64,000 nucleotides of DNA from Candidatus Lloydbacteria bacterium RIFCSPHIGHO2_02_FULL_50_18 (lineage in GTDB: Bacteria; Patescibacteriota; Minisyncoccia; Phycocordibacterales; UBA6899): positions 1 through 64,000 of the forward strand of contig MHLM01000012.1 in the NCBI GenBank assembly GCA_001821395.1, given 5' to 3'. Shown in pieces: positions 129 through 60,944 of the stretch. Under the pieces are notes generated by a model. It ran no database searches. It was given only the letters and a program-made list of their open reading frames with translations, and was not told the origin of the DNA. The position numbers and the translations under genes were made by a program. Position 1 is the stretch's first letter. Every line of letters begins with the position of its first letter.

Positions 129-1499
129 TTATCGAATTGAACCTGCTGCATCTTTTTGTTCCTCAGGCGTTAGAGGGGGAAGTGTCTCGGAGACATTCAT
201 AGACCCAAGGTCTCCCGTGGGTTTCGGCAGCCGCATTGACCACAACGAATCATCTTCTTTGTTCACAAATATGAAGTGACGCCCACTCTTATCAATGAGC
301 GGCATGATAACATCGAAGTGTTTTTGGATGACCGATTCCGGATCCGCAATGAAGGTGATCTCCGTTGTATCGGTGTTCACCATCCAGAATGTATCACTCA
401 GACTAATGAGACCTTGATACCATTCATCAGGAAGTTTCGTTCCCGTTGAACCGACAAATGAACCGCAATAGAGCGTAGAGGGTAATACCCCCCATGCGCA
501 TTTCTCAGGAAGCGTCGCGAGTGGGATAAGTGCTTCGTGGTTCTCGACGCCCTCATGCGAGGAAAAACTTTTCTTTGTATACATTCCAAGGAATGGTGCA
601 TTTGCGACATTTTCGCCAAAGAGAATGCGACTCCCGACACTGTCTCCAAAAGTTGTGAGTCCATTCTTTTCTCGCACAATACGGGTAAGCGTTTTCTTGA
701 TCGGATCATACAAATAGGAATACCCGGCGATACCGGCAGATGGTTTTGTCGTGAGGAGAATAGTGCCATCGTCAAAAAGTTGAGGCAGCCATTCACTAAA
801 TGAGTTACGGAATACCTCCTTAGGGAAAAGCGTCGCATTGAGTGAGATGAGGGTGCCAGATACACCATCGGAAACAGGAAGCAGATAAAAAAGGCGAGTC
901 CCGTCAGGTGAAATGCTGACCGCACTGATATTGTCGGGAAGAAACTCCGTGCTACTGCGAATACTCCCCATACTTTCTTCATTGGTCGGAAGTTCAAGAT
1001 TTCCGAGATAGGTGACAATAACATCATTATTCAGCACACGTTTTAAGTAGCGCATGATGATCGTGTTGCCGTTGTTCCCAAAGAATGCCTCGTAGACACG
1101 AGGAATAGTCGTGTTGGTGATCTGACGGTCCGTTCCTGTTGACGGATCAACCTCATGGATATTCCCATTTTCTCGAAGCACGTAGCGTACATAGGTTATT
1201 CCGTCCCGAATCACGGTGGTAAATCCTGCAACGGACTCTTTCGACAATTGTCGGAACACTGGCTCTTCACCTGTGATTACCGGTGTCTCCTCGCTTCCTG
1301 TTGGAGTAATGTCTCCGATTATATCACTCACCGGTGTCTCCGGTAATACTTGTCCGAAGGGAAGGACTGCACCAACCTTTCTTGCGATAGAAGTATCCTT
1401 CCCAAGGGTGAGCAGTAGAACAAGAATGACCAGCAGAACGACGACGATTCCCGCAACGATCCATATCCACCACCTTTTGCGTTGTTCTTCTTGCTCCAT
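129..1499 (-). CDS. hypothetical membrane-anchored protein (N-terminal TM helix, large extracytoplasmic domain)
   Basis: 456-aa ORF. Its N-terminus WWIWIVAGIVVVLLVILVLLLTLG is a single TM anchor. No recognisable catalytic motif. Confidence 0.55.
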   Translation of the reverse strand: MEQEEQRKRWWIWIVAGIVVVLLVILVLLLTLGKDTSIARKVGAVLPFGQVLPETPVSDIIGDITPTGSEETPVITGEEPVFRQLSKESVAGFTTVIRDGITYVRYVLRENGNIHEVDPSTGTDRQITNTTIPRVYEAFFGNNGNTIIMRYLKRVLNNDVIVTYLGNLELPTNEESMGSIRSSTEFLPDNISAVSISPDGTRLFYLLPVSDGVSGTLISLNATLFPKEVFRNSFSEWLPQLFDDGTILLTTKPSAGIAGYSYLYDPIKKTLTRIVREKNGLTTFGDSVGSRILFGENVANAPFLGMYTKKSFSSHEGVENHEALIPLATLPEKCAWGVLPSTLYCGSFVGSTGTKLPDEWYQGLISLSDTFWMVNTDTTEITFIADPESVIQKHFDVIMPLIDKSGRHFIFVNKEDDSLWSMRLPKPTGDLGSMNVSETLPPLTPEEQKDAAGSIR

Positions 1500-1511: not shown

Positions 1512-2501
1512 TTATTCTTGTGACGTAAATGATATAACTCCTTGAACTCTTGCATGCTGCAGAATACGTTTTGGATTTTGCACGTCGAGCGAGATCGTTT
1601 GTGATTCCAAATTTTTACCCGACCTCACGAGTGTCAGGTTCTGTGCGTCAACTTCTGATTGTCGATATTGATTGCCGACATTCCATTTATAGGAAAGTTC
1701 ACCATTGAGTAAGCCGTCAAGAGAAAAGAAATACGGCACAGCGCGTACAGTGAATTCCGTACCTGTCGTTTCCGTAGATTGTTTTAGTGCATGATGAAAG
1801 AGGGTGCCAAGAAGTGGTGCTTGCTCATAGAGTGTGACTTTTGGATCTGAAACAGGAATTGCGACGTATTTTGCCCCCTTCCACTCAGTCCCAGGAAGAC
1901 TTGTTTCGACATCGACGGGTACTGAGGACCCGGCATAACCAACGGGAATAACGATGCTGTTTCGTCCGATAGCTTCTCCCGCCCCCTTTATGCGGTCATA
2001 GGTCCATTTGTAATAGTATTCAGCAGGATTGCTTGTCAGGGTGTTGAATCTCGGGATCGCCGTTACCCGCACCATGCTTTTGTAGCTGGGGAGCGCTTTT
2101 CCTTTGTAGAATGGAGGTGTATATGTTTGAGCTTCCCAGAGAATGTCGACTTCTGCAGGGGCAATAACAAGCTGCTTATTAAGCGTCTGTCCTTCGGCGG
2201 TGAGAATGATTACGTCGATAATGGTCTGCTCTCCAAAGTCTCCCGTCCGAACAGTGATCGATTTTTCCGCCATGCCATTTTTGATTGGCTCTTTATTGAC
2301 ATACCAGGTGATATTTGCGGTACTGAGATTCACTGCGAAGGAATTCATGAGTACGAGGACGCTCTCGTTTGCGCCGGGTGTTTTTGGGGTCGTCGTGAAT
2401 TTCACGAGATCAAATCCTGCTGCAAATAGCGTTCCAGGAAAAGTTGTTAATGAGAAAATTATTCCAATGAGCAATAGTGCTCGTTTTGTACTAAGATACA
2501 T
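1512..2501 (-). CDS. hypothetical secreted protein
   Basis: 329-aa ORF with signal peptide MYLSTKRALLLIGIIFSLTTFPGTLFAAG. Confidence 0.55.
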   Translation of the reverse strand: MYLSTKRALLLIGIIFSLTTFPGTLFAAGFDLVKFTTTPKTPGANESVLVLMNSFAVNLSTANITWYVNKEPIKNGMAEKSITVRTGDFGEQTIIDVIILTAEGQTLNKQLVIAPAEVDILWEAQTYTPPFYKGKALPSYKSMVRVTAIPRFNTLTSNPAEYYYKWTYDRIKGAGEAIGRNSIVIPVGYAGSSVPVDVETSLPGTEWKGAKYVAIPVSDPKVTLYEQAPLLGTLFHHALKQSTETTGTEFTVRAVPYFFSLDGLLNGELSYKWNVGNQYRQSEVDAQNLTLVRSGKNLESQTISLDVQNPKRILQHARVQGVISFTSQE

Positions 2502-2642: not shown

Positions 2643-3089
2643 CTAAGTACTCGGAATAACGAGTCTCCCGGCACCAGAAATAACTTTTTTGGCAATGCCC
2701 ATTGCTCGTCCGACAAAGAAAGATGCAAAAAAGGCGATACTTGCGTCAGGGAGAAGATTAATGATGGGGATCATCCCCATAAGCGCACAAATACTGGTGA
2801 TCATAAATTTTGTCATGATCCCTCGACGTGAATAGAGGTGATAGATCATTGCGATGATTCCAACAGTAAGCGTCATAATCCCACCGAGAATCATGCAAGC
2901 GATAGAGATGGGAATACCGATGACCGTTGCCGCGGTCATTGCCTCAATGCCAGAAAGGAAGAGGTCGATAATGTCCTTAAGTATCATGATCCCTGCGACA
3001 AGCCAAAAAAAGAGCATATTTGTAGCTGCCTTCGCAGCAGATTCGCCGGAATTATCAGGTTTTGCTGTTTTTAGTGAAGATAGTGCCAT
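2643..3089 (-). CDS. small polytopic membrane protein; possible T4SS pilin / VirB2-VirB3-like subunit
   Basis: 148 aa with 3-4 hydrophobic helices. It sits immediately downstream of the VirB4-like ATPase in the same orientation. Confidence 0.45.
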   Translation of the reverse strand: MALSSLKTAKPDNSGESAAKAATNMLFFWLVAGIMILKDIIDLFLSGIEAMTAATVIGIPISIACMILGGIMTLTVGIIAMIYHLYSRRGIMTKFMITSICALMGMIPIINLLPDASIAFFASFFVGRAMGIAKKVISGAGRLVIPST

Positions 3090-3095: not shown

Positions 3096-4895
3096 TTATC
3101 CTTTAGCCTCCGCAAGCTCCTTTTTTGCCTTCGCTATTGCCAGCATTTGTGCCGGATCGGAGCTGACGATCTGGTCTTCGGTGTAAGAAGCGTAGACCTT
3201 GATAGCGACGTGCTTTAATCCTGCGAAGAAAAGTCCTTCCCCTACCCCTGACTCGAGTAAGAGATACTTTTCTTCATCAGTTAAATGGAACGTCTGCTGT
3301 ACAAGATCGATCGTCGTCGGTGATTGCTTGAGGAGTATTTGGATCGATGAGTTGGTGAGGATCGGAAGCCCATACGGAGAACGAAGGAAATCGTTGACGT
3401 CCTGGGTGATGGTCGCAATACCGAGGTAGTATTTACGACCGCGTTTCGCAAGACCAAAAAGGAATGATGCCGTATCCTCGGATTTCATCATCCACCACGC
3501 TTCATCAACAACGAGGAGGCGTTTGCGTATCTCCTTTCGTATCGCTGTCCAAATATGGTGCGTGACGATATAGACGGCGACTGGCTTCAACTCGTCCTCC
3601 ATGTTGCGGACAGAGAACACGGTGAAGCGCTTTGTGATATCCACATTCGTTGGCTGGTTCAAGAATCCCGACCAGGTTCCTCTCGTGTATTTCTCAAGGC
3701 GCTGAAGGAGCGACTCCGTTCCGTTCATTCCGGAGAGGACGATCTCGAAGTCCGACAGTAGTGGCGGCTCGATATCAGCAAAATTAATATCAGGCGTGAT
3801 ATCCTTGAGTGCGTATGTTTCTGAAATTGCACGGTCAATGATCGAGTCTTCCTCCGGAGTGAGTCCTCCGAGCATAATGCGGAACAGTCCGACGAGGAAG
3901 ATGATATTCGAGCGCAGCACGTCCGCACCGGACTCATCTTCGCGTGGGGCAGGAAGGTCGAACGGATTGATGTGATGTTCTGATGTCAGTGAGATATTAA
4001 AGTAGCGCCCTCCCGTCGCTTCCGCAAGAAATCCGTACTCTTGCTCAGGGTCGATAACGATCACATCCGCATCGAACATGAGTGTTCGGATGATCTCGAG
4101 TTTTGTTGAATAGGATTTTCCCGAACCTGAGACGGCAAATGTGACCGAATTGTAGTTCGGCATTGAGAATCGATCAAAAAGTACAAGCGAAGCATTGTGC
4201 CTGTTGATCCCCCAAAGAATTCCCTTGTCCGAGGTAAGGTCGAAGGAAACGAACGGGAATATCGACGAAAGTGGCGCAGAGTTCATCTTGTAGTGGACCT
4301 CAAGCTCGTCAGTCATGAGCGGGAGAACGCTGCGGTATGCTTGCTCTTGCTGGAAGATCGCCGGTTTTAAATATACGAGTTTCGCATCAAGGATCGACTT
4401 GAGCTCACTCTCTACTTTGTCGAGCTCGTTTCGATCGTTGGCATAGATCGTGATATAGACACCAACATCAAAAAGGCGCTCTTCCGCTTGTTGGAGCTTG
4501 TCACGCAGTCCCTCGAGGTCTTGGTATGCGATATCAAGCACCGGGTCACGGACAAACCCCTTGCGCTCACGTTCGTTGATCTGGCTCTGTACCTCAGCGA
4601 CCTTTTTCTGGAACGAACGGAGCGCGAGTTCTGTTTGCACGGGATGGATCATGATTGCGACATCGAACACTTTGTCGAGATTGATGATAGGAGTGAACCA
4701 ATCCTGCGACAAGAACCGAGGATAGGAGATCACGAACAACGTGCGTGCGATCTTGTCGCCGATAAAGATATCTTTTGGAGTGATGTCTACGGCGGCGGGA
4801 GCAAGAATATCCTTCATGTCGAGGTTTGTTGACTCGAATATATCAGAAGGAAGCACCCCGGTATTTAAATTTTCAAATCCTTTTTTTTCTGCCAT
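3096..4895 (-). CDS. virB4: VirB4/TrbE/CagE-family type IV secretion ATPase (ATPase domain portion)
   Basis: Walker A FAVSGSGKSYST and Walker B LLVVDEAWWMM, both typical of the VirB4 family. The N-terminal region TLFVISYPRFLSQDWF resembles the VirB4 central conserved block. Confidence 0.8.
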   Translation of the reverse strand: MAEKKGFENLNTGVLPSDIFESTNLDMKDILAPAAVDITPKDIFIGDKIARTLFVISYPRFLSQDWFTPIINLDKVFDVAIMIHPVQTELALRSFQKKVAEVQSQINERERKGFVRDPVLDIAYQDLEGLRDKLQQAEERLFDVGVYITIYANDRNELDKVESELKSILDAKLVYLKPAIFQQEQAYRSVLPLMTDELEVHYKMNSAPLSSIFPFVSFDLTSDKGILWGINRHNASLVLFDRFSMPNYNSVTFAVSGSGKSYSTKLEIIRTLMFDADVIVIDPEQEYGFLAEATGGRYFNISLTSEHHINPFDLPAPREDESGADVLRSNIIFLVGLFRIMLGGLTPEEDSIIDRAISETYALKDITPDINFADIEPPLLSDFEIVLSGMNGTESLLQRLEKYTRGTWSGFLNQPTNVDITKRFTVFSVRNMEDELKPVAVYIVTHHIWTAIRKEIRKRLLVVDEAWWMMKSEDTASFLFGLAKRGRKYYLGIATITQDVNDFLRSPYGLPILTNSSIQILLKQSPTTIDLVQQTFHLTDEEKYLLLESGVGEGLFFAGLKHVAIKVYASYTEDQIVSSDPAQMLAIAKAKKELAEAKG

Positions 4896-4900: not shown

Positions 4901-5548
4901 TTACATGACTGAAGACTCAAGTTCTCCGGGATTAAATTTCTTGTAAAAAAGTTCGGTTATTTCTTCGGTTCCAAGTCGGATCGTGCGCAAGTCGCATCGG
5001 GAAAGACCTTGTTCGACGATTGATGCACGCTGCTCAAGCTGGACGCGTGCTTCCTCAAAGCTGTGTGTTTCTGCGGCGGTCAGTTTTTTGCTCGAGGCCT
5101 TCTTTCCGAAAATACCGGACAGGAGACCTCCTCCCCCGCTCCCCTTAGCAAGGCTCACTCCTCCCGAATATGGGATGATGATAAAAAAGTTCTTTGACAT
5201 GATATTCGTGCGGCTCGTGAAGTCTCTGACGAAGCTGATATATTCATGCACTTGAATCTTCATGGCATCAACGAGTTGTGCCCGTTCTCGTTCCTCAAGC
5301 ATCTTGAGGTATGGCCGGATGTCGAGACGCTTCGATTGGATGGAGATCTGAATAGGAAATTCGAGTGAGTTCAGGACATTTTGGAATTGCATCAGTATCG
5401 CGGCTTGCTCATCCCCAGATTTTAGTCCAAAGTTAAGGGATGAGGTCATCAGCATCATGCGGAGGTCGCCATTGTTGAGTACGATGACACCATTCCTGAT
5501 ATCACGAATGGGAACGAAATCTTGTGACGGTTTTCCTAATGTTGGCAT
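4901..5548 (-). CDS. VirB4 N-terminal-domain-like protein (apparent split VirB4); start assumed at MPTLGKP
   Basis: The segment IVLNNGDLRMMLMTSSLNFGLKSGDEQAAILMQFQNVLNSL matches the VirB4/TrbE N-terminal region pattern. It ends 5 nt before the ATPase ORF start. The two ORFs together are about 814 aa, the normal VirB4 length. Confidence 0.45.
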   Translation of the reverse strand: MPTLGKPSQDFVPIRDIRNGVIVLNNGDLRMMLMTSSLNFGLKSGDEQAAILMQFQNVLNSLEFPIQISIQSKRLDIRPYLKMLEERERAQLVDAMKIQVHEYISFVRDFTSRTNIMSKNFFIIIPYSGGVSLAKGSGGGGLLSGIFGKKASSKKLTAAETHSFEEARVQLEQRASIVEQGLSRCDLRTIRLGTEEITELFYKKFNPGELESSVM

Positions 5549-5562
5549 GCTGCAATTATAAC

Positions 5563-6009
5563 TTAAATAACGGCTGATTCCGAGCCTCGTTTCTCTATGA
5601 CCTTCGGTTTCGTGTCGATATCCATGGACCACGTAAGGTCACTCAGCTTATTTCCTGTTCCGGCGATCGGAAGTGACCCCACTTTGATTGTCGTTTGAAA
5701 ATTATTCAGATTGAGTTCGGTCGGCATGAGTGTTTTTTCTGATCTTTTCCACACGTAGCGACGCACATTTTTCATATAGTTAAATGCGGACTCGATCATG
5801 TTCGCAAACGGTTTTTTATTTGGGCGGTAGAATCCGAGTGCTCCCCCAAGACCAACGCACCCGAGAGCGAGGAACCAGCCGATAAATGGTATACGAGAGC
5901 ATATGTAGCCGAGACCGACACTGCCCGCGATGTAGAGAAACTGCTTGATCGTGAGCGGACCAATGACCTTATCTTCAACATCAAGAAATTGTGGTACCTG
6001 GAACTGCAT
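5563..6009 (-). CDS. PrgI/VirB3-like small T4SS membrane protein
   Basis: N-terminus MQFQVPQFLDVEDKVIGPLTIKQFLYIAGSVGLGYI followed by two TM helices, as in PrgI/TcpE-like proteins of monoderm conjugation systems. Start assumed at the internal Met. Confidence 0.5.
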   Translation of the reverse strand: MQFQVPQFLDVEDKVIGPLTIKQFLYIAGSVGLGYICSRIPFIGWFLALGCVGLGGALGFYRPNKKPFANMIESAFNYMKNVRRYVWKRSEKTLMPTELNLNNFQTTIKVGSLPIAGTGNKLSDLTWSMDIDTKPKVIEKRGSESAVI

Positions 6010-6105
6010 TATGGTTAGTTTACCTTTTTTTGTTTTAGGTGAACAGCGATCCGCCACTCACTGGGGAAGCACTAGCATTTCTTCCGCAAAGAGGCCTAGG
6101 AGTTT

Positions 6106-6750
6106 TTACCCTTCGGTCGTCTCCCTATAAGCATCTGGCTGTGTAGTCAGACTCGGTGCTTTTGTCTCGACAGGCTGAAAAGGAACAGTTGGCGTCGGTG
6201 GAGGGGGAACGACGAGCATGGGGTCCATGACCCGCTCCCTTGTCGGTGTCGGTATGGGGCTACTCATACGGAATGCGCCGCCAAGTTTTTGTTCGAATAT
6301 ACTCCCCACCGGCCTTGTCGGTGTCGGAGGTGTGGGGGTGACGATGATCGGTCGTTCTACGGTTGTTGTCGCCTGTGGTGCGCTCGCTGTCCCAGATCCG
6401 GAAATAGTTGACGGCGTGGTTTCAGTATATAGAGCGGTAAGAGAACCTTTGACACTGTTAAAGATATTTAAGTTGAGGTCCTGAGCAATAAGTGCTGCTT
6501 GTTCGCGAGATATCTTTAGCTCGTCTGTGAGCGCTATCACAAACTGCTGTGGCTGGGTGACGCCCATGAGGAGTAGACTGGATTGATGAGAGAGTGATTT
6601 TCGCTGCGCGGTACTGAGTACGAATTTTGTTGCGATCGCATCGTAGTACTCTGAAGTTTGCGGAGAAAAAATGACATCCTGAAGATCATCCGGCAGAGAG
6701 CGGTATATCGATAAAAGATCTTCTTTGGTATAAGTGTATGCCATGATCAC
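6106..6750 (-). CDS. hypothetical protein with Pro/Thr-rich C-terminal region
   Basis: 214 aa with PTPPTPTRP and PPPPTPTVP low-complexity linker-like stretches. It lies between the VirB6-like and PrgI-like genes. Confidence 0.45.
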   Translation of the reverse strand: MIMAYTYTKEDLLSIYRSLPDDLQDVIFSPQTSEYYDAIATKFVLSTAQRKSLSHQSSLLLMGVTQPQQFVIALTDELKISREQAALIAQDLNLNIFNSVKGSLTALYTETTPSTISGSGTASAPQATTTVERPIIVTPTPPTPTRPVGSIFEQKLGGAFRMSSPIPTPTRERVMDPMLVVPPPPTPTVPFQPVETKAPSLTTQPDAYRETTEG

Positions 6751-6753: not shown

Positions 6754-9132
6754 TTAGCTCGCAAGCTTGTTTAGGTTGTCCTGGATCGATTTTTCACTTG
6801 CCTCTGCTGCATCGTGTGCTTTCTGCGCATCACCGATCTTTGTAGATATCCCCGTTGCTTTTGCCGCAGCAAGTCTCGCCTCTGTCTCTGCGCTTCTCAG
6901 TTTTGCTGCGCCGAGATCGATCTTCAGAGCGTCTCCACTCTTTGTTTTTGCAGCTCGAGCGATGTTGCGCTGGTAATTTTTCATATCACTTTCTTGGATG
7001 GTTCCCATTTCGAAAAGTGAAGATTTTCCTTCCGGAGAATTCATGTAGTTCACCACCTCTTCTCTCCCTCCGATTGCCACACTCTTAGTGAGCTTTTCTG
7101 TAACGCCTGCCTTGTAGCCGTCCTCGCTGACCGCCTTCCTCTGTATTGCATGAAGGTCTGCCTTCGTGAGATTACGTGCAAACGCGACACTTTCATAGTG
7201 GTCTTCTGCCAGCTTAGCTCGATCAATAGAAGTGAGGCCTTGCATTGCTTTCTTCATTTCTTCAGATACCTCCTTTGTTATTCGAATGACCTCATCATCA
7301 GCAGATTTGTTTATGGCGAGCTTCTCCTCATCTGTTTTGGCGTCTTTAATGGCAGCGGTGCGTTTCGTCTCGATATCGTTGATCCTTTCTTTTTCTGCTT
7401 TTGCGTGTTCCGCAATCTCCTCCTTGCTTTTTGCTAGGGCTATCCCCTTATTGAGCTCCTTTCGTGTCGCATCGTTACGCTTTGCGTCTGCGATGATCTC
7501 GCCAGGTTTGTTCGTAATATCTACCCCTCTTTGTTTTAAGTATGCTTGTTGCGCCGTCGGGTCATTTGGGAACCGTGCTTTTGCTGTGGCGATAAGCGCT
7601 TTCTCGTTTTCTGTGCCCACATAACCACCCACACCCTTATAAGAGAGAGAGCCCTCAGCGCCACCCGTTGTTGCATAACTCCTCTTGCTCCCAGCGCCTG
7701 TTTGAATCCCTACTGCTCCCAATGCGGCTCCGACACCAAGTCCTTTCATTGGCGCATTGCGTATGTCGTAGGTCCCCTTACTTGCTTTCTCTGCGGCGGC
7801 AAGTTTGAGGTTTGCGGAGCGGGCTGCAAACTTATCTCCTATCTTTGCGTCTTTCATACCACCCTTTGCAATAAGCTTATTTTGTTCAGCGACCCATTTT
7901 TCATTTTGGAGCTTACTCCTGCCCGCCCTACCCGCCGTTTGTCTCCCTACTGCTCCTGCGGCACCGAAACCGGCTGCGGCTCCATAGCCAAGGCCTCTCT
8001 TCGCCCACCTACTTCCACTGTCTCCCGCGCCCGCACTCACCGCATTTGCAACCGTGAGTGATGCGAGCAGCAGTATGATCATCAGTACGTAGTTGTAGAT
8101 GATTGGCAGACTACCAGGGTCTCCTGCGAGTGCGGCACCCCATTTTAATCCCTTGGCGCCGCCAAGAGTGTTGAGGTCAACACCGTTAATGATGATGATC
8201 ACGAGATAGAGCATCGCAAGGAATGCGGGCGCTACAAAGGCGTTGCCGATTAGTTTACTCAGCCATTTTTGGCTGAATCCGCCTCCCACAGGTAGGGCAA
8301 AAGAAAGAAAGGCAAATGGAGAAACGATCATCAGAAATATAAGGGTCACCGTGCGAATGATCATCATGATCGCTCCCGCGAGAAATACATATCCGGCAAC
8401 CAGCATAACGAGCGCACCGCCAATATAAATAAGGATACGATTTATGGGTTGTATGCCCGGAATCGTGTTTCCATCCTTATCTTTAAAGTCAGCGATCGAC
8501 TGGAGTTTTAACGCACCCAGGAGATGCTGTGCAGCAGAAGAATCTCCCGGCACTTTTCCCATCTCCATTTTTGACCAAAATCCCATAGCGAGCACGTTGC
8601 CGGCATCAATAACTACTTTTGTGGCAAAGAGGCTGAAATTGATCAGTATTGCGGCGAGGATCAGATTTGCAACCCAGCGTTTAGTGCTTGAGCCACCCAT
8701 GCCAAGAATCGTCTTGATGGCAATATAGAGTAGTGCAAAAATAAAGAACATATTTGAAAAGTCGCGCACCGTCGTCCAACCGACATTGATCACCTGGAGA
8801 CTCGAATACATATTGCTGTCGATAGTGGACTGAATTGCCATATCAAGCAAGAGGCCGCATCCCTCAAGAAACAAGCCGGCCGCCCAAAATATTGCCTGCG
8901 CGAGCATTTCCAGTAATGCGAGCGCAGCGTTCCCCGCCGCATCAAGTGCAGCTCCGCCAAAAAGCTTTGCTGCTACATACGACCCCCCCGCCCAGAGCGC
9001 CCAGGCAATTGGAAGAAATCCTCTAGAAGTACTATTGAAGCGATCTATCTTTTGGTTCTCTGCTGTGTCTGCCGAGTTCCGAAAAAGCGGTTTGAATTTT
9101 TTGTGTGCTATCGAGTAGTAATAAAGTTTCAT
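6754..9132 (-). CDS. VirB6/TrbL-like polytopic membrane protein with long hydrophilic Ala/Lys-rich C-terminal domain
   Basis: 792 aa. The N-terminal ~380 aa hold 6 or more TM helices separated by Gly-rich loops (TrbL/VirB6 architecture). The C-terminal half is charged and coiled-coil-like (KAEKERINDIETKRTAAIKDAK...). Confidence 0.55.
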   Translation of the reverse strand: MKLYYYSIAHKKFKPLFRNSADTAENQKIDRFNSTSRGFLPIAWALWAGGSYVAAKLFGGAALDAAGNAALALLEMLAQAIFWAAGLFLEGCGLLLDMAIQSTIDSNMYSSLQVINVGWTTVRDFSNMFFIFALLYIAIKTILGMGGSSTKRWVANLILAAILINFSLFATKVVIDAGNVLAMGFWSKMEMGKVPGDSSAAQHLLGALKLQSIADFKDKDGNTIPGIQPINRILIYIGGALVMLVAGYVFLAGAIMMIIRTVTLIFLMIVSPFAFLSFALPVGGGFSQKWLSKLIGNAFVAPAFLAMLYLVIIIINGVDLNTLGGAKGLKWGAALAGDPGSLPIIYNYVLMIILLLASLTVANAVSAGAGDSGSRWAKRGLGYGAAAGFGAAGAVGRQTAGRAGRSKLQNEKWVAEQNKLIAKGGMKDAKIGDKFAARSANLKLAAAEKASKGTYDIRNAPMKGLGVGAALGAVGIQTGAGSKRSYATTGGAEGSLSYKGVGGYVGTENEKALIATAKARFPNDPTAQQAYLKQRGVDITNKPGEIIADAKRNDATRKELNKGIALAKSKEEIAEHAKAEKERINDIETKRTAAIKDAKTDEEKLAINKSADDEVIRITKEVSEEMKKAMQGLTSIDRAKLAEDHYESVAFARNLTKADLHAIQRKAVSEDGYKAGVTEKLTKSVAIGGREEVVNYMNSPEGKSSLFEMGTIQESDMKNYQRNIARAAKTKSGDALKIDLGAAKLRSAETEARLAAAKATGISTKIGDAQKAHDAAEASEKSIQDNLNKLAS

Positions 9133-9201: not shown

Positions 9202-10752
9202 TTATGGGAATGCCCAACCCGAATATCCGGTATCAAGTGCGTCCTGCTGGTTTGTATCCGTGACGACAACAGCTGTTGATTGTGAATTGAATTTCATTTC
9301 ATCATAGATCATAAGCATTGTTGCTTGAGACCAGTAGGAGGTGTCTTTTGAGACACCAAAATATCCGATATACATTGTATCGTAGAGCTCCTTCACGAGC
9401 TCATTCACTGCGTTCTTGCTCGTTTGGAGTGGAGTGGTGTCGAAATCATTGAGCCCTTCCTGAGCTATTTGTGCTGACTGGGCTTCTGCAGGGTTGCCCG
9501 CACCAGAGTCAAGTGTTTTTGTATCACGCACTTGCTGATTACCGCTTCCCGCAGAATCACCAACGCTCCGTTGTGCTTCTCCTGCCGGGGTGACGGCGAT
9601 TGAGTTTTGTTGCTCAAGACAGTAGGGGTCATCAGGACGACCCGAGCATTCTGTCACGCTTGAGAAGCCGCTGCTCATCATATCTTGTCTCTTTGCTTCC
9701 TCTTGGCGCGCCAGTCGTCCCTGTACGACCTGGTCCGCTAGCGTGCTTGCACCGAGAGGAGAATTTGCAGGATTGTTCAGCATTGCACTAAACGTGGAAA
9801 TTCCGTCAACGAGATTGGCGGGGTCGTTGAAATTTTCCATGAATTTTGATGAATCACCAGGATTAAGGTATGTCGAAAGAGAGGATCCAGTTATCGATTG
9901 TGTGTAATTGAATGGATCTTCTGTTGATGACCGAGCATTATTGGCCATGTTTGCCGCAGTATCGAGACGCCAATCAGGGAATACATCCCATGAGCCGACA
10001 GGGTTTCCGGACAGTGGGTCCGATGCCGCCTGATCAACCGCGTGTTCAAGCTGGCGTGCTTTAACGTTGTAAATACTCTGTGAAGCATTGGTGTTGTAGA
10101 CAGCAGAATTTGACACCATTCCATTGTCGACGACCTCGTTTCCCGCTTTTGCCCAGTTTATGTTGGCGGCCGACATCTTGTTCATCAGCTGGTTGTTGAG
10201 CTGCGCGGTCTGCGCATCGGTAATATAGCTTTTGAGCAGCTGATGTATCTGGAGTGAGAGTCCTAATTTTTGCCATTCCACCTGTTCCTCGAGGAGGCAT
10301 CGGAGTGAGTGGCTATAATTGACCTGGACATATGGACCGGTTTTTGTTGCTGCTGGCGGACCTGCCGGAACTCCAAGGGGAAGTGTTGATGACGCCGAGG
10401 CATCCTTCCATGGTGTTGAACTGCCGGTAGTATAAGCAAATGCGGCATTTGGAAACCCCTCCATGTTATCACCCCTAATACATGGACCCCCCGCTTGTGC
10501 CATTGTGAGATTGTTTGCGGTAATGAGGTTCCGCAGTGAATCGGGATTATTTTTGAGGACATCGTTCATGTCTTTTGCATAAGTATCGAATTTCGTTGCG
10601 TACGAATTGAAGTCCGATATCAGGGTGGCATCATTGACCGGCACATATTGCGCGCTTGCATCTATCGGAGCAAGAAGGAGGACAAAAAATAATAGCATCA
10701 TCGTAAAAAAAACGTTGATGCTGTTCTCAATATTCATTATCTTATTGTACAT
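9202..10752 (-). CDS. hypothetical secreted protein
   Basis: 516 aa with signal peptide (FFTMMLLFFVLLLAPIDASA) and an Asn/Gln/Ser-rich mature region. Confidence 0.55.
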   Translation of the reverse strand: MYNKIMNIENSINVFFTMMLLFFVLLLAPIDASAQYVPVNDATLISDFNSYATKFDTYAKDMNDVLKNNPDSLRNLITANNLTMAQAGGPCIRGDNMEGFPNAAFAYTTGSSTPWKDASASSTLPLGVPAGPPAATKTGPYVQVNYSHSLRCLLEEQVEWQKLGLSLQIHQLLKSYITDAQTAQLNNQLMNKMSAANINWAKAGNEVVDNGMVSNSAVYNTNASQSIYNVKARQLEHAVDQAASDPLSGNPVGSWDVFPDWRLDTAANMANNARSSTEDPFNYTQSITGSSLSTYLNPGDSSKFMENFNDPANLVDGISTFSAMLNNPANSPLGASTLADQVVQGRLARQEEAKRQDMMSSGFSSVTECSGRPDDPYCLEQQNSIAVTPAGEAQRSVGDSAGSGNQQVRDTKTLDSGAGNPAEAQSAQIAQEGLNDFDTTPLQTSKNAVNELVKELYDTMYIGYFGVSKDTSYWSQATMLMIYDEMKFNSQSTAVVVTDTNQQDALDTGYSGWAFP

Positions 10753-10764
10753 GATTTTGGATAG

Positions 10765-11763
10765 TTATTGAATAGTCTGAACAGGTCCTGGCGTCTGCAT
10801 AAGGACTCGCGTGAATGGATACCCGGGTTCCCCCTCAGTGAAGACGATCCCGCTGGTCTTCAAAAATGAAACTACTTCACTGTATCCGGTGGTGACGTCA
10901 AGGCGAGTTTTTGTGTATGTTTGATATCCGGCTGCTCCATTGATCGGGTCAGAAAAAAGATGCTGCATACCAAGAAGGCCTCGCGACATACCGTCATAAC
11001 TATTCACAATAATGAGGTGTGACTGAGCTAGTCCTGAGGGGGTTTTTAATGCGCGCAGGTCAAGAGAAAATTTTTGATACACGATCGTGAGTAGCTGTAA
11101 TTCCTTGAGGGTTTCATCATCTTTTGTTTTTAGTCCATCAGCAAGTATCTCCTCTTCCGTGCGGAGGTGCGTAGAAGTGTATTTGTTGATGAGCTCACCG
11201 AAGGCGTTACCATAGGAACGCAGTGCCTCGGGACTATTGTCTCCGATGATATTGAGATCAGCGAGCTCATTCGCGGGTTTATATTTCTCCGGATTGAAAC
11301 CTTTGATAAGGTCGCGATAGGTTGTTTCACGGACCTCCTTACCTTGTAGTGCAAGAAACTTTGCATAGAATTCCTTTCGTTTTCCCTCTATGTCGGTCGT
11401 AGATGTTGCAAAATTGGGGTCTTGCATGATGGCAAGCTTGTCATCAGGTCCTGCCTTCACCGGGTTTCTGCCTTGTGCGACCTCTGCCCCATCGAGAGTG
11501 CCATCCCCATCTGTATCAGGGTTATGCGAATCGCTCCCATAAAGGCCTTCCTCCCAGTCAAGAAGACCATCATCGTCGGAATCTCGCGTGTCAATATTAT
11601 TTGCGTTGTTTAGACCCTGTTCAACAAGCTCTTGCGCATCGCTGCTGATTTGGGGTGCGCGGTTCACAAAAAAACCTACACCAACAATGGTAAGCGCGAC
11701 GAGGCTGCTGATCACAAGATTTTTGTGCGGTGAATGCAAAAAGTCCATAAGATTTCTCAACAA
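10765..11763 (-). CDS. membrane-anchored protein with Asp-rich calcium-binding (thrombospondin type-3-like) repeats
   Basis: TM anchor (LVISSLVALTIVGVGFFV) followed by DSDDDGLLDWEEGLYGSDSHNPDTDGDGTLDGAE, a DxDxDG-type motif. Confidence 0.55.
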   Translation of the reverse strand: MLRNLMDFLHSPHKNLVISSLVALTIVGVGFFVNRAPQISSDAQELVEQGLNNANNIDTRDSDDDGLLDWEEGLYGSDSHNPDTDGDGTLDGAEVAQGRNPVKAGPDDKLAIMQDPNFATSTTDIEGKRKEFYAKFLALQGKEVRETTYRDLIKGFNPEKYKPANELADLNIIGDNSPEALRSYGNAFGELINKYTSTHLRTEEEILADGLKTKDDETLKELQLLTIVYQKFSLDLRALKTPSGLAQSHLIIVNSYDGMSRGLLGMQHLFSDPINGAAGYQTYTKTRLDVTTGYSEVVSFLKTSGIVFTEGEPGYPFTRVLMQTPGPVQTIQ

Positions 11764-11897
11764 AAGAATGCTCCACTATTGTATCAATAATAGAATAAGA
11801 ACGGGTGAGAATATATATATGTGTGTGGATAACTGACGCTCGAGTAATCGATATTTCTGAATACAAAAAAGCGGAGCATGGTGCTCCGCATTCTCTC

Positions 11898-12464
11898 TTA
11901 CCGTCCTTTACCACCGATGATGCCAAGTGCTCTCTGGAGCGCATCCTTCGGTATCGCGTCGAGGATCTCTTGTGCCGCATTTCTTTCCGGTGTTTCACGC
12001 TTATCTGTCGCAAGATTGGGGTCATTTCCATTTCCCGAACCCGCGAATTGCTGTGCTTCACTGCTTTCAAAAATAAGGACACCTATGTTGTTTGCATCAA
12101 ATACAACCCAGGGTGTCAACTTGTGGCTGTTGATTTTCCAGACGCGGTCTACTGTTCCATGGATTATTGTTCGAATACGCCAAGCTTGCTTTCCATCCAC
12201 CGACCTCACGTCAAAACACCTGATACCCTGCCTTGAGGGGATGATGTTTCCATCCGGATCGCAACCCCCTATAGCGAAACCTCTCCCAACTATTTTTTTG
12301 GGCAGATATGGCCGTACGTAGGAATTTTTTTCAATAATAATCTCTTCCAAGGTCTGCTGCTTTGGGTCAGAGGCCGTGCGATTTTCGTCACCTTTATTGG
12401 CAAGTGCCAGTGGAGAAAAAGTGACCGCCAGTATTACCGAGGCTAAAAGAAACAATTTTTTCAT
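11898..12464 (-). CDS. hypothetical secreted protein
   Basis: 188 aa with signal peptide MKKLFLLASVILAVTFSPLALA. Confidence 0.55.
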   Translation of the reverse strand: MKKLFLLASVILAVTFSPLALANKGDENRTASDPKQQTLEEIIIEKNSYVRPYLPKKIVGRGFAIGGCDPDGNIIPSRQGIRCFDVRSVDGKQAWRIRTIIHGTVDRVWKINSHKLTPWVVFDANNIGVLIFESSEAQQFAGSGNGNDPNLATDKRETPERNAAQEILDAIPKDALQRALGIIGGKGR

Positions 12465-12622
12465 TCCGATCTCCTGTGTAAAGTAACATTCCGAGAGTCA
12501 TGTTATAACGAATTTGTGAATTGTCAATGGTCTTGAGGTGGAAAGCGATCATTTTGCAATAGTGCAGACAGAACGGAGGCACACTGCTATAATTTATTGT
12601 AATAGTTGCTTAACCACCCTAT

Positions 12623-13714
12623 ATGATGCACATGCGAACATTTATTATCCTTCTTGTATCGTGTTTTTCATTATTCACTGCACTCCCCGTCTTTGCCGCG
12701 ACCGATTGTGTGACCCTTTCGCGCAATCTCTCGCTTGGTATGAGCGGTACCGACGTTACGCTACTTCAGCAGGTTTTGAACAGAGACCCAAGAACCAATG
12801 TAGCCGTGACTGGTCCGGGGTCAGCCGGTTTTGAGAGTCGCTACTTTGGGCCGCTCACGAAGCAAGCGGTTGTTGCTTTTCAGAATATTTATGCCGGAGA
12901 AGTACTCAGTCCGGTCGGACTTACGACAGGGAGCGGTTATGTGGGGACATTCACAAGGGCGAAGATCCTCACGTTGTGTAATAAGTCGCAAGTAGCGATT
13001 TCCACTCCTATCACAACGCCAACCCCCATTCCCCCTAATCCCGTCACTCCAGTTGCAGTGGTCAATCAGGCACCTTCGACCGTAGCTCCGAGCACCGCCA
13101 CGACAAATAAGTCCGAGGTGGTGAATGATACTGTCGCATCACTTGCGGCATTTCATTCTGCAACCCCCGTCATGATGTTTCCCTCGACATATACTGCTTC
13201 GCGCGGAACTAAGGTGCTGCTCTATGGGGTCGGTCTTGCTACTGAAGGGAATATCGTTCACCTTGGTGACTATTTGATCGCTAGTACCAGTGTTGATAAG
13301 TTGGGTGTGCTCACCTTTATCGTCCCGGAAAACGCACCACGAGGAAAGCACGACCTCTGGATATCAAGCAGTAAGGGTGCAACAAACAAAATGTTCCTTA
13401 TCGTTACCGAATTGAATGTTCCTGCACCAACTATTGTCAGTTTTTCTCCGGCAGAGGGGCTGCTCGGCACCATGGTGACGGTTACCGGTACTGGGTTTAC
13501 TGCACAAGGGAATGAAGTTATCGGCGGACAAGGTTTTCAAAAAAATATTATCTCGGCAGATGGGAAGACGCTACAGTTTAAGGTTACCGCCGAAGTACCC
13601 GGAGTAGAACAAGGGATCGATTACTCGTCGGTTGACGCCCGTATCCCTGTTTGGTACGGCATCCTCAACGAAAACGGAATCTCTAAAAAATTAATGTTCA
13701 CCGTAATTATATAG
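12623..13714 (+). CDS. secreted protein with N-terminal peptidoglycan-binding domain (PG_binding_1-like) and Pro/Thr linker
   Basis: Signal peptide, then LSLGMSGTDVTLLQQVLN...FGPLTKQAVVAFQ (PGBD pattern), then TPITTPTPIPPNPVTP linker and a beta-rich C-terminus. Confidence 0.6.
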   Translation: MMHMRTFIILLVSCFSLFTALPVFAATDCVTLSRNLSLGMSGTDVTLLQQVLNRDPRTNVAVTGPGSAGFESRYFGPLTKQAVVAFQNIYAGEVLSPVGLTTGSGYVGTFTRAKILTLCNKSQVAISTPITTPTPIPPNPVTPVAVVNQAPSTVAPSTATTNKSEVVNDTVASLAAFHSATPVMMFPSTYTASRGTKVLLYGVGLATEGNIVHLGDYLIASTSVDKLGVLTFIVPENAPRGKHDLWISSSKGATNKMFLIVTELNVPAPTIVSFSPAEGLLGTMVTVTGTGFTAQGNEVIGGQGFQKNIISADGKTLQFKVTAEVPGVEQGIDYSSVDARIPVWYGILNENGISKKLMFTVII

Positions 13715-13750
13715 TTGGAATGCGCGTGCCATACTATAATCATCATACTT

Positions 13751-14179
13751 ATGAAATATCTTGCCATTCTTGTAAAAAAGCTTAAACAAAACATCAGTGC
13801 GGCATCCCGCATACTGATCGCAGTAACTGTTGTGATCGTTGGCGGAGCGATCGCATTTGGTGTTTACGTACACCCGACAGAGGCAGACACGGGTATCCCA
13901 TTCGGCGGACTTTCGACCTGGATCCAGTACTGCACTTGTACCGGCCCAGGAGTGATTGCGGTGACGGTGATGGATCTTAGTACCACGCCGGGAACTCCGA
14001 CTAATTATATTTATTATCCCGGCGGTACGATCCTTCACCCGGAGTACAATATCTACAGTTTGGGTGTGTGGCTGCTCGGTAATCGCAGCCCCGGTGGGGT
14101 ATGTATGTATTGGGTCGGAAAGATCTGCGTTACTTGGCCGACAGATGGAAGTATGGTTCGCGTTGGAACATCACTGTAA
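13751..14179 (+). CDS. small Cys-rich membrane-anchored/secreted hypothetical protein
   Basis: Start assumed at MKYLAILVKK. One TM helix (ILIAVTVVIVGGAIAFGV) and 6 Cys in the mature part. Confidence 0.4.
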   Translation: MKYLAILVKKLKQNISAASRILIAVTVVIVGGAIAFGVYVHPTEADTGIPFGGLSTWIQYCTCTGPGVIAVTVMDLSTTPGTPTNYIYYPGGTILHPEYNIYSLGVWLLGNRSPGGVCMYWVGKICVTWPTDGSMVRVGTSL

Positions 14180-14207
14180 GAGAAGTTACGTATACAAAAC
14201 ACCCTCA

Positions 14208-15050
14208 CTATTTTTCGTGAGGGTGTTTTGTATGACTTGAGATTTTCTTAGTAAGCCACATCCATGTTCCGATCGGCAGATCCTCTCCCCGTGCTTTTTT
14301 ATCAATACTGAGCTCGTCAAAGTACTCAATTATCTTGTCTTTATGTATACCTAATCCCTCTGAAAGATTTCCGACGAGCATTTTTCGTTTCGCGCGAAAA
14401 CCGGCCTTGATGAGGGTGAAGAATTCTTTTTCAGTAAAATCTTCGATCCTTTGTTTGCTGATATTGGTGATCATGAGGATCGCAGAATCGACCTTTGGCA
14501 CCGGATCAAAGGATTCCTTTGGGACCGTTGCAACATATACCGGGTCACCAAATATCTTAATTGAGAGTGAAAGGATCGTCTCTTTTTTGTTGCGCGAGAC
14601 GATCTGCTCCGCGACCTCTTTTTGTACGAGGAAGGTGAGCTGTGAAGGAGCACGGTGTTCCTCGAGAAAATAGCGGAAAAGCATTCCGGTAATGTAATAA
14701 GGAATGTTGGCGACGACTTTATATGTCGGCACATTACCGAGTAGTTCATCAAATAATTCCCGCGTAATATTTTTTTCCAGAATGTCGCCTTCTAAAAGTA
14801 TTAGGTGACCATCGCGAAGCGCATCAGCAAATCGGTCAGTAAGAATGGGGATGCAGCGCGTATCCTTTTCAATCGCGATCACATGAGCCCCAGCGTTCAA
14901 GAGGGCATTCGTGAGCGCCCCTTCCCCGGGGCCGACTTCAATGACGATGTCTCCGGGGAATATACCGGATGCATCAATGATCTTTTCAATGGTCGTTTCC
15001 GAGCGGAGAAAATTCTGTCCTAATGATTTTTTTGCTTGAATATTTTTCAT
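14208..15050 (-). CDS. rsmA: 16S rRNA (adenine1518/1519-N6)-dimethyltransferase
   Basis: KKSLGQNFL and VIEVGPGEGALT are the KsgA/RsmA signatures. Start taken at the internal Met MKNIQAKK. Confidence 0.85.
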   Translation of the reverse strand: MKNIQAKKSLGQNFLRSETTIEKIIDASGIFPGDIVIEVGPGEGALTNALLNAGAHVIAIEKDTRCIPILTDRFADALRDGHLILLEGDILEKNITRELFDELLGNVPTYKVVANIPYYITGMLFRYFLEEHRAPSQLTFLVQKEVAEQIVSRNKKETILSLSIKIFGDPVYVATVPKESFDPVPKVDSAILMITNISKQRIEDFTEKEFFTLIKAGFRAKRKMLVGNLSEGLGIHKDKIIEYFDELSIDKKARGEDLPIGTWMWLTKKISSHTKHPHEK

Positions 15051-17574: not shown

Positions 17575-18621
17575 TTGCGAAGTCTGGTCAGTCTGTTTCG
17601 GATGAGCACGCTTTCATTGAAAAAGCTGAGTTTTTCTCTATTTCTCCTCCTCATCATTCCCGGAGCTGTCGCATCTGCCAGCTTCTTTTCTTTTTTCGGA
17701 GACATCTTCAGCAAGGTGAGCACTCAGGAGAAGATCATCAATTCACAGAATGTTGCCCTGCTCGCAGCCGCGATAGGCCCCGGGGAATATATCAATCCAG
17801 ACTCTGCTGAGATCAGTACTGTCGGTGAAAGTGCGATATTGCCTGATGTTGGTCCGGACGGGGGGCTTTCGGATGTTGACGGAATGGAAGGCGGCCATGG
17901 ACAGATCAGTATTTACGTTGTCCACGAGGGTGATTCTCTTTCTGCGATCGCGCAGATGTTTGATGTTTCGGTGAACACCATTCTTTGGGCAAATAGCCTG
18001 CCTCGGGGCACGAAGCTTTCTGTCGGACAGACGCTGGTGATCCTTCCTGTGTCAGGGGTAAGGCATATCGTAAAACGAGGTGATACGGTATCGTCGATCG
18101 CGAAGAAGTATGCGGGGGATCCCGATGAGATCCGTTTATATAATGGCATTGATGGAGACACACTCGCGATCGACTCCGAGATCATCATTCCTGATGGAGA
18201 GGTTGCTGCGGTCGTGGTCAAGACAAAGCCCGCTTCCTCGAAATTAGGCGGCGGAAATGTCCCACTTTATAATGGGTACTATCAGGCGCCGTTCGGAGGT
18301 TATCGAAAGACACAGCGGCTTCATGGTTACAACGGCGTTGATCTCGTCTCCTCGCTCGGGATAGGGGCGCCGGTGATGGCCGCCGCAAGAGGAACAGTCA
18401 TTATTGCTCGACGGGGCGGCTATAATGGGGGGTACGGGAGTTACGTCGTCATTCAGCATGGCAATGGAACACAGACGCTCTACGGGCATCTAAAGTCGGT
18501 GACTGTGTCATCAGGAGAGATCGTCGTTCAGGGGCAGACGATCGGGACGATGGGAAATTCGGGGCGATCGACGGGACCACATTTGCACTTCGAGATCCGC
18601 GGCGCACGAAATCCTTTCTAA
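17575..18621 (+). CDS. secreted LysM-domain M23 (lysostaphin-like) peptidoglycan endopeptidase
   Basis: Signal peptide, two LysM motifs (VHEGDSLSAIAQMF, VKRGDTVSSIAKKY), and M23 motifs GVDLVSSLGIGAPVMAAARGTV and HLHFEI. Confidence 0.9.
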   Translation: MRSLVSLFRMSTLSLKKLSFSLFLLLIIPGAVASASFFSFFGDIFSKVSTQEKIINSQNVALLAAAIGPGEYINPDSAEISTVGESAILPDVGPDGGLSDVDGMEGGHGQISIYVVHEGDSLSAIAQMFDVSVNTILWANSLPRGTKLSVGQTLVILPVSGVRHIVKRGDTVSSIAKKYAGDPDEIRLYNGIDGDTLAIDSEIIIPDGEVAAVVVKTKPASSKLGGGNVPLYNGYYQAPFGGYRKTQRLHGYNGVDLVSSLGIGAPVMAAARGTVIIARRGGYNGGYGSYVVIQHGNGTQTLYGHLKSVTVSSGEIVVQGQTIGTMGNSGRSTGPHLHFEIRGARNPF

Positions 18622-18727: not shown

Positions 18728-19363
18728 GTGAAGAAGATAATTTTTGATAATGAAAAGATCGGCTTGAGTGAAAAAGAGCTGGAGATCTTCTCTGCGCTCG
18801 GCACCCCCGCAGCAATTCAGTCGTTTGTTTCCGCTATTCCCCATAATTTCGAACGAAACGGTGATTCGTGCATGTCGGTGCGTGAGGTCCTTGCGAAGCG
18901 TCGCGCGCATTGCATCGAGGGTGCAGTGGTCGCAGCACTCGCATTTTGGGTTCACGGAGAGAAGCCGCTCTTAATGGACCTCGTCGCCGGTGGCGGTGAT
19001 TTTGATCATGTTGTTGCGTTGTTCAAGCGGAATGGCTGTTGGGGTGCGATATCGAAAGGCAATCACGCGTATACGCTGTATCGTGATCCCATATATCGCA
19101 CACTACGCGAACTCGCAATGTCATATTTTCATGAATACTACGACACCGATGGCATCAAGACGCTTCGTGCATACTCGCTGCCTTTTGATATACGAAAATA
19201 TCAGCCTGAAGAATGGGTGACCGGTGAGGATGCTTGGACCATCGCGGAAGATATCGGTAAGGTACGACATTTCCCGCTCATCTCCGCACACCAGGCGTCA
19301 TCATTGCGAGAGATCGATGATATTGAGCGTACTGTGGCGAAGATCACCATAACGAAGCGTTAG
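18728..19363 (+). CDS. hypothetical protein with conserved Cys/His/Asp pattern (possible transglutaminase-like/papain-like fold)
   Basis: 211 aa containing CIEGAVVAALAFWVHG ... DFDHVVALFKRNGCWGAIS. No secure family assignment. Confidence 0.5.
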   Translation: MKKIIFDNEKIGLSEKELEIFSALGTPAAIQSFVSAIPHNFERNGDSCMSVREVLAKRRAHCIEGAVVAALAFWVHGEKPLLMDLVAGGGDFDHVVALFKRNGCWGAISKGNHAYTLYRDPIYRTLRELAMSYFHEYYDTDGIKTLRAYSLPFDIRKYQPEEWVTGEDAWTIAEDIGKVRHFPLISAHQASSLREIDDIERTVAKITITKR

Positions 19364-60943: not shown

Positions 60944-60944
60944 T

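Follow-up and report, generated by a model that had tools for sequence, protein, structure and literature searches.

A stretch of 64,000 nucleotides from Candidatus Lloydbacteria bacterium RIFCSPHIGHO2_02_FULL_50_18, an ultrasmall bacterium of the candidate phyla radiation (contig MHLM01000012.1; this whole stretch is called the window below) contains an operon that encodes a type IV secretion system (T4SS) and, at positions 9202-14179, five consecutive genes for exported proteins, which we call A to E (Table 1). The first-pass annotation of this DNA had described them as a block of five secreted or anchored proteins located downstream of the T4SS genes. The five open reading frames (ORFs) are indeed present, and hydropathy (Kyte-Doolittle windows plus inspection by eye, on which all our signal and anchor calls are based) revealed a hydrophobic N-terminal segment in 5/5. 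The segments end like signal peptidase I sites in A (LLLAPIDASA/QY, the slash marking the predicted cleavage), C (SPLALA/NK) and D (LPVFA/AT); the segments of B (aa 14-36) and E resemble uncleaved anchors, and most homologues of E have a signal that looks cleavable. Scans against Pfam, NCBIfam and PHROGs returned nothing besides TSP3_bac, IPT/TIG and a weak PG_binding_1 match, and the statement that none of the five has an obvious named family holds for the core of each of them. The description as one block downstream of the T4SS genes has to be revised, however, since A and B lie upstream of the gene for a VirB6-like protein and are transcribed before it, and D and E are encoded on the other strand. 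The run alone is mildly unusual: 18 of the 63 ORFs in the window (~29%) satisfy our crude measure of N-terminal hydrophobicity, and ~0.11 runs of five such ORFs are expected per window. What the five-gene run means comes from synteny and not from the run itself.

The genes for B, A, the VirB6-like protein, g214, PrgI/VirB3, TrsD, VirB4, g148, g329 and g456 follow each other in this order, tightly packed on the minus strand. B and A are separated by 12 bp, A and the VirB6-like gene by 69 bp, and the spacing of the remaining minus strand genes is -70 to 141 bp. A strong intrinsic terminator directly after the stop codon of C, GCGGAGCAccaTGCTCCGC followed by TTTTTTGTAT, parts C from the B operon; GCGGAGCAccaTGCTCCGC and TTTTTT occupy 11889-11871 of the minus strand. 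Sigma-70-like consensus matches on both strands were found in the divergent region between C and D, with TTGACA-16-TAACAT (minus strand, 12527-12500) as candidate promoter for C and CAGACA-17-TATAAT (plus strand, 12565-12593, upstream TG flagged) as candidate promoter for D-E; no such consensus match was seen in the 107-bp spacer that precedes B. Because the B-A spacing is tight, a terminator follows C, the promoter matches are divergent and D-E are located on the other strand, the five genes are predicted to form three transcription units: B-A at the head of the T4SS operon, C alone, and D-E on the opposite strand. C was also considered as a member of the B operon, but this was rejected since the terminator lies between them and C is missing from 48 of 50 related loci.

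These related loci were taken from a sample of 80 loci around VirB4 relatives (one genome per species, 10 kb flanks), which we queried with all window proteins by blastp and iterated hidden Markov models (HMMs); the counts for B, C, D and E given out of 50 refer to the loci with at least 9 kb upstream. In Paceibacteria, the largest class of the candidate phyla radiation, the gene order is conserved: B, an ORF at the A position, VirB6-like, g214, PrgI, TrsD, VirB4, (g148), g329 and, further on, g456, with D and E optionally in front of B on the opposite strand. A member of the B family was found in 47 loci and in 44/50 of those with sufficient upstream sequence (VirB4 identity 72-95%); in four of the six loci without B, longer genes place the position of B beyond the fetched DNA. 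Distant B homologues from other assemblies occupy the same position. The interval between B and the VirB6-like gene is filled by one large ORF, mostly of 330-990 aa and with a hydrophobic N-terminus, in almost all of the 47 loci. Plain blastp with the A protein of the window finds its closest relatives only, and 42 of the A-position ORFs together with window A make up a single blastp family (43 of the 47 proteins compared). A profile of the Lloydbacteria-clade A proteins (64 sequences) aligns with the profile of the other A proteins with an HHalign probability of 98.7% (E 2.3e-16, 277 columns), and an HMM built without Lloydbacteria sequences matches window A with 3.4e-11 (hmmsearch). Both clades included, 49 of 51 loci contain a member of the A family; in every case it shares the strand of VirB4 and lies upstream of it, and no copy is present elsewhere in the 20-kb locus.

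Two kinds of rearrangement separate the neighbours from each other. In one genome (locus L004), the B-A-T4SS block is preceded by a Lnt-type CN-hydrolase gene and a gene for a SpeE-like membrane protein instead of rsmA. In three other loci of one lineage (L085-L087), a homologue of D (1e-105) and one of E (1e-23) lie next to rsmA/uvrD and are bordered by Lnt on their other side; B, A and T4SS genes are not adjacent. Thus, B-A travel with the T4SS and D-E belong to the rsmA side. If a gene cluster is taken to consist of genes on the same strand that lie near virB4, the virB6-like gene and prgI and co-occur with them, A and B are part of it and C, D and E are not. The co-variation with VirB4 and VirB6 across genomes that the first-pass annotation had proposed to look for in all five was therefore seen for A and B, is weak for D and E, and is absent for C.

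B starts with a TTG at 11763 after GGAG (an alternative ATG is present at 11748) and consists of a transmembrane helix (aa 14-36), two Ca loops (aa 61-94) and a helical-bundle ectodomain (aa 122-303). The thrombospondin-type-3-like (TSP3) Asp repeats noted in the first-pass annotation are real: the Pfam family TSP3_bac (PF18884) matches with 26.1 bits, above its cut-off of 25, and Ca binding by the two EF-hand-type loops is predicted. Of the 185 B homologues found, 73 were aligned, essentially over the full length and with 23-74% identity. In the resulting 74 sequences, D61, D63, D65, E72, D83, D85, D87, D91 and E94 are the sole invariant residues, all of them ligand positions of the Ca loops, and G66, D69 and G88 are nearly invariant; column entropy is lowest in the loop region, and no other part of the family is as conserved. 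Both loops show the acidic ligands at positions 1, 3, 5, 9 and 12 and the Gly at position 6 that define this loop type. In a search against the PDB, the family profile found the biofilm protein Bap (8e-10) and lanmodulin (1.5e-5), in both cases at the EF-hand region and through the Ca loops only. The AF2 model is confident (pLDDT 85, >94 at aa 150-320) and contains the transmembrane helix, two loop-helix units and the helical bundle.

The two canonical 12-residue loops of B, each followed by a short helix, are similar to the TSP3/EF-hand loops of other bacterial proteins (PF18884 in OmpA-like proteins, Bap, lanmodulin), and the loop-helix pairs may be of the dockerin type. B differs from these proteins in that it is encoded in a T4SS operon and its loops have a membrane anchor on one side and a helical bundle on the other, with no OmpA, cohesin-binding or lanthanide context. 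With one N-terminal transmembrane helix and an extracytoplasmic domain encoded in a T4SS operon, B is also similar to VirB8-like bitopic subunits such as PrgL, TraM and TcpC. However, the VirB8-type domain is NTF2-like with an alpha+beta fold, and the ectodomain of B is modelled as an all-alpha four-helix bundle after two Ca loops. VirB8-like and chemoreceptor-like readings of B were both rejected since the fold matches were generic and non-specific; B may be an analogue of VirB8 at most, not a member of that family. In one locus (L082, 8962-10957) two B-family genes, for proteins of 313 and 318 aa that each contain TSP3 repeats, lie in tandem ahead of the A-family gene, and in several others a 290-320-aa anchored ORF lies just upstream of B, suggesting that B is sometimes duplicated.

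For A, 68 homologues (38-99% identity) were found, none of them with a Pfam domain. The conserved core comprises aa 141-280 and 441-500, aa 41-140 and 281-440 are variable, and two Cys (C91, C152) are invariant. The rate of evolution of A is much higher than that of VirB4. The consensus of the wider A family contains the motifs WINSGFxGxPxF, GDFxxGGWxxW, NNPxGAY and TPGxVI, which align with window A, and some members carry additional F5/8 type C (discoidin) or Big_7 domains. These additions suit a surface-exposed protein in contact with glycans. Neither A nor the wider family matched the PDB by sequence or profile; the AF2 model (pLDDT 68, pTM 0.41) consists mostly of long helices.

A shares several properties with the VirB5/TraC-type pilus-tip adhesins of diderm systems, being Sec-exported, mostly alpha-helical and fast-evolving, and its gene is located immediately before the VirB6-like gene, as in the established order virB5-virB6. 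It is, however, more than twice the size of VirB5 and has no Pfam or PDB sequence match; no sequence or fold match assigns it to VirB5/TraC, whose fold is a three-helix bundle with a helical appendage. A VirB1-like catalytic domain of the lytic transglycosylase, CHAP, NlpC/P60 or lysozyme-like kind was found neither in A nor in D.

The T4SS itself is already known, and the A, B and E-domain families would be additions to a known system. With a VirB4 of the CD1110 family, a separate TrsD-like gene, a PrgI/VirB3-like gene, an extended VirB6-like gene and a chromosomal location near ksgA/rsmA, with no relaxase or coupling protein seen nearby, the operon is of the Patescibacteria type (MPF-FATA-like). 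Such systems were surveyed across the phylum by Quinonero-Coronel et al. 2025, who reported KsgA (rsmA) often near virB4 (PMC12102498); a coupling protein and a relaxase are generally lacking nearby (PMC12102498, PMC10633639). The Patescibacteria T4SS is needed for the epibiotic growth of the Saccharibacterium Ca. Southlakia epibionticum, where it is likewise described without a recognisable relaxase or coupling protein (PMC10633639), and no T4SS before it had been shown to be essential to its owner's growth (PMC10633639, PMC12857230). Patescibacteria are the one monoderm group reported with VirB2-like pilins (PMC12857230). The published surveys considered only subunits matching known T4SS profiles and noted VirB8 and adhesins as missing (PMC12102498), and VirB8 homologues are described there as almost absent from Patescibacteria outside the class ABY1. 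The S. epibionticum operon starts with the VirB6-like gene and has a divergent pilin array, whereas the Paceibacteria operon starts with B and A. The available text of PMC10633639 and PMC12102498 contains no mention that we could find of the A, B, D and E families or of the fixed operon place of A and B.

C is an orphan of 188 aa whose signal peptide is MKKLFLLASVILAVTFSPLALA/N. The same sequence is recorded as "hypothetical protein A2845_00160" from a Candidatus Lloydbacteria RIFCSPHIGHO2 genome, and the database search yielded four homologues including itself; a search against the PDB gave no match. Among the 80 loci, it was found in L001 and L002 only (2/50), with 34% and 25% identity compared to 95% and 90% for VirB4. 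We predict that C is secreted, evolves fast, is specific to its lineage and has a promoter and a terminator of its own.

D contains a signal peptide, a PG_binding_1-like module (aa 41-120), a Pro/Thr linker (aa ~125-165) and two IPT/TIG domains (aa ~185-363). A peptidoglycan-binding domain with Pro/Thr linker had been proposed before; the linker is clearly visible, and the domain is only probable with 16.7 bits (E 0.0086), below the PG_binding_1 (PF01471) cut-off of 23. The closest homologue of D reaches 20.9 bits, proteins that fuse the N-terminal domain of D to the E domain match PG_binding_1 with up to 8e-8, and the D family profile weakly matches peptidoglycan-binding domains (1lbu, 0.2; CtpB, 0.37). 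In the Lloydbacteria clade the module is bracketed by two Cys. The two IPT/TIG domains (PF01833) had been missed; they match in two stretches with 37.8 bits (cut-off 20.9), and the family profile matches the TIG domain D of CGTase (4e-9) and the TIG domains of Bacteroides surface glycan-binding proteins (SGBP-B), while D as a single sequence found no match in the PDB. With its signal peptide, peptidoglycan-binding-like module, linker and two TIG domains, D is similar to wall-bound Ig-like surface proteins (PG_binding_1 plus IPT/TIG), from which it differs by the score below cut-off and by its pairing with the 4-Cys protein E.

E carries a C-terminal domain of ~95 aa with four conserved Cys and the pattern PFGG...CTC...W.LG.Y.PG..C...C.P...G...VGTS, for which there is no Pfam family. 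It had been described as a small 6-Cys protein, but the two extra Cys are located in a 12-residue N-terminal extension that is missing from the homologues. The 6-Cys version starting at 13715 was rejected on the basis of the homologue alignments, and since the homologues lack the extension, E probably starts at M13 (13751). Exhaustive phmmer searches revealed 232 clusters with the E domain, mostly proteins of 110-140 aa with a signal peptide. In longer proteins the domain is C-terminal and combined with PG_binding_1 (4), NlpC_P60, C92 amidase or TIG; fusions to PG_binding_1 are present in L027 and L048. A-E themselves carry neither NlpC_P60 nor C92.

The D family occurs in 13 of the 50 loci, and in all 13 it lies between rsmA and B on the strand that does not encode B; E occurs in 11. 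The interval between rsmA and B is empty in about a dozen loci; in 13 it contains D, alone or with E, on the opposite strand, and elsewhere it harbours other anchored proteins, including tandem B-like genes. Because the slot is variable and the pair of L085-L087 is located beside rsmA with no T4SS genes adjacent, the link of D-E to the T4SS is facultative. In the closest relative (L083, 4070-6640; VirB4 95% identical), E is replaced by an 856-aa anchored protein that ends in the E domain (~90 residues), and D is only 33% identical; the D-E slot turns over very fast. Between the convergent genes E and rsmA lies a 14-bp perfect inverted repeat (caaaacaccctcac / gtgagggtgttttg, 8-nt loop, 14195-14230), which overlaps the last rsmA codons and has a T-tract on neither side. 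This hairpin may act as a bidirectional terminator.

Probably, though by no means securely, the five genes are a composite of three units, in which B-A would be extracytoplasmic parts or accessories of the T4SS, C a lineage-specific protein, and D-E wall-associated proteins with an optional link to the T4SS. We read B and A as parts or accessories and not as cargo because of their fixed operon position, their co-occurrence with the T4SS, the rearrangement in L004 and their topology. B would be anchored in the membrane by one helix, would expose the Ca loop pair and the four-helix bundle on the outer face, and could act where membrane and wall meet, as a docking subunit or as a scaffold stabilised by Ca2+. 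There it might occupy the niche that is held by bitopic VirB8-type subunits in other monoderm T4SSs and is unfilled in most Patescibacteria. A would be a distal, surface-exposed component, such as a stalk, tip or adhesin contacting the wall or the host, and both proteins may be physically associated with the T4SS. D-E would be wall-associated surface proteins, divergently transcribed, in the variable slot between rsmA and the operon. The surface or envelope role that had been suggested for the five proteins (adhesins, effectors or envelope factors beside a secretion system) is thus reasonable, with the wall-bound architecture of D and the discoidin or Big_7 domains of some A-family members as adhesin-like elements, but the suggestion that A and B are cargo is not supported.

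The Paceibacteria operon reproducibly opens with two exported proteins of unnamed families, one with invariant Ca loops and the other without detectable fold relative, and A and B are concrete candidates for the missing extracytoplasmic T4SS parts. Together with the E domain, they represent three new families; the result is useful but incremental and refines a known system. A bolder version, which we regard as doubtful, would make A and B unrecognised structural subunits specific to the Paceibacteria T4SS, with B as a Ca-dependent membrane/wall scaffold in place of VirB8 and A as a distal tip or adhesin of new fold, its variable parts and added lectin or Ig domains setting host specificity. 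A, B, g329 and g456 would then build an extracellular architecture that no described T4SS has.

Several points weigh against A and B as T4SS parts. It is the gene context that speaks for a contact of either protein with the T4SS, and neither resembles any known T4SS subunit. A is without a fold match and its model is moderately confident; the fold search with B found generic helical bundles only and not the NTF2 fold of VirB8. Neither A nor B matched any of 72,556 plasmids by tblastn, and thus no plasmid T4SS gene is recognisably homologous to them. In S. epibionticum the operon starts at the VirB6-like gene, and a TSP3-type protein like B was not found in the annotation tables of PMC10633639, so that A and B are class-specific rather than universal T4SS parts. 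The signal peptides were called by eye and hydropathy and not by a trained predictor, and the promoter matches between C and D are not above shuffle expectation. Finally, most loci have ComM, M23/LysM, UvrD and RsmA ahead of the operon; the linkage of B to VirB4 is no closer than that of housekeeping genes, and L004 is the only rearranged genome in which B-A are parted from these neighbours. With synteny extending over the entire neighbourhood, proximity by itself counts as weak evidence.

This synteny would also be expected if all five were general envelope proteins with no tie to the T4SS and their adjacency were a frozen Paceibacteria gene order. The background of hydrophobic N-termini in the window fits such a view, as does the persistence of D-E beside rsmA where the T4SS is missing; D and the fusion partners of E point to peptidoglycan. 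For A and B it is contradicted by the tight same-strand spacing to the VirB6-like gene and by L004, in which B-A follow the T4SS and not rsmA, and for A also by the lack of any further family copy in the 20-kb loci. As an explanation for the whole set we consider it unlikely; for C, D and E it is the reading that we prefer, with all three as general proteins of wall or surface. It is less likely still that A, and perhaps C, D and E, are cargo or effectors released or displayed via the T4SS. Classical T4SS substrates are recruited from the cytoplasm, and the Sec-type signals therefore argue against these; the Sec-type N-termini on 5/5, the only kind of signal seen in A-E, would fit a two-step route of the pertussis toxin kind, with Sec export first and then passage through a T4SS without coupling protein. 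The rapid evolution of A relative to VirB4, the discoidin and Ig-like additions in some members of its family, and the extremely fast evolution of C are in line with this, since fast evolution and add-on domains are typical of host-interaction proteins. No coupling protein or relaxase was seen among the window ORFs scanned, and both are generally lacking near the Patescibacteria T4SS, as they are in the pertussis toxin system Ptl (PMC12102498, PMC10633639, PMC12857230), which has Sec-exported substrates (PMC12857230). On the other hand, A and B are single-copy and fixed at the operon head in ~90% or more of the assessable loci. Effector repertoires normally vary in number and position. In addition, the membrane anchor of B precludes its release, D-E are retained where no T4SS is adjacent, and no effector-like enzymatic domain was found in A-E in the Pfam, NCBIfam and PHROGs scans.

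A might also be the missing VirB1-like hydrolase that opens the wall, with a new fold and with B as its membrane partner, the motifs of A being the active or glycan-binding site. The conserved Gly, Asn and aromatic residues of these motifs and the carbohydrate-binding discoidin domains of some family members would agree with this, and monoderm T4SSs are reported to require a wall hydrolase (PMC12102498). Yet no hydrolase family or lysozyme-like fold was detected in A, and catalytic residues cannot be named. Furthermore, an M23 peptidase with two LysM domains is encoded nearby (17575-18621, plus strand), syntenic with uvrD-rsmA-T4SS where the DNA of the relatives reached that far, and peptidases of the M23/LysM type have been reported as stand-in for VirB1 in Patescibacteria (PMC12102498). 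We consider a hydrolase function of A very improbable, and keep to the reading in which B and A would be T4SS parts or accessories outside the cytoplasm.

Table 1. Genes and sequence features of the T4SS operon and the adjoining genes in the window.
Feature	Position	Strand	Remarks
g456	129-1499	-	N-terminal anchor
g329	1512-2501	-	secreted (signal peptide)
g148	2643-3089	-	small, polytopic
VirB4 ATPase	3096-4895	-	NCBIfam CD1110 family, 362 bits
TrsD/TraC-like VirB4 N-domain	4901-5632	-	243 aa
PrgI/VirB3-like	5563-6057	-	
g214	6106-6750	-	Pro/Thr-rich
VirB6-like	6754-9132	-	extended, polytopic
A	9202-10752	-	Sec-exported, mostly alpha-helical; second cistron of T4SS operon (predicted)
B	10765-11763	-	bitopic membrane protein; first cistron of T4SS operon (predicted)
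Two EF-hand-type loops of B	11482-11583	-	aa 61-72 and 83-94, DxDxDGxxDxxE
Intrinsic terminator	11861-11889	-	directly after C stop codon
C	11898-12464	-	secreted orphan; monocistronic (predicted)
Divergent promoter region	12500-12593	both	consensus matches, sigma-70-like
D	12623-13714	+	secreted surface protein (predicted)
E	ORF 13715-14179, likely gene 13751-14179	+	small anchored/secreted protein

In the remainder of the operon, VirB4 is split into an N-domain gene and an ATPase gene, as in 77/80 loci. The VirB4 of the window is 95% identical to that of a Candidatus Lloydbacteria MAG and 72-75% identical to those of many other Paceibacteria/Parcubacteria; the ATPase is unusually conserved across the class compared to its neighbours (25-50%). 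The proteins g329 and g456 are also exported and without a family, and they are kept together with VirB4 more widely than B is (77/80 and 65/80 loci). The operon is thereby flanked at both ends by exported proteins lacking a family.

A coupling-protein-like gene was seen in a distant member of the Parcubacteria (L081, 2087-4516), where an 809-aa protein with matches to DUF8128, DUF87 and TrwB_AAD_bind is encoded a few genes away from the T4SS operon, with ComM on one side and the M23 peptidase on the other. At the corresponding position of the window there is only a 211-aa ORF (18728-19363).

A second run of anchored proteins in the window belongs to a type IV pilus-like locus (56042-63340) with a PilB-type T2SSE ATPase (56042-57793), a 405-aa ORF (58528-59745) and four consecutive ORFs with strongly hydrophobic N-termini (59886-63340), which are probably pilins or minor pilins. 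A CheA-like histidine kinase (37559-39250; Hpt, HATPase_c, CheW) may regulate this pilus. The GC content drops to 0.40 at 32001-34835, compared to ~0.48 elsewhere, next to tRNA genes (31543-31805 and 35047). By this dip lies a 378-aa ORF without Pfam match (33699-34835), and a tyrosine recombinase is encoded at 27007-27948; the region may be an island.

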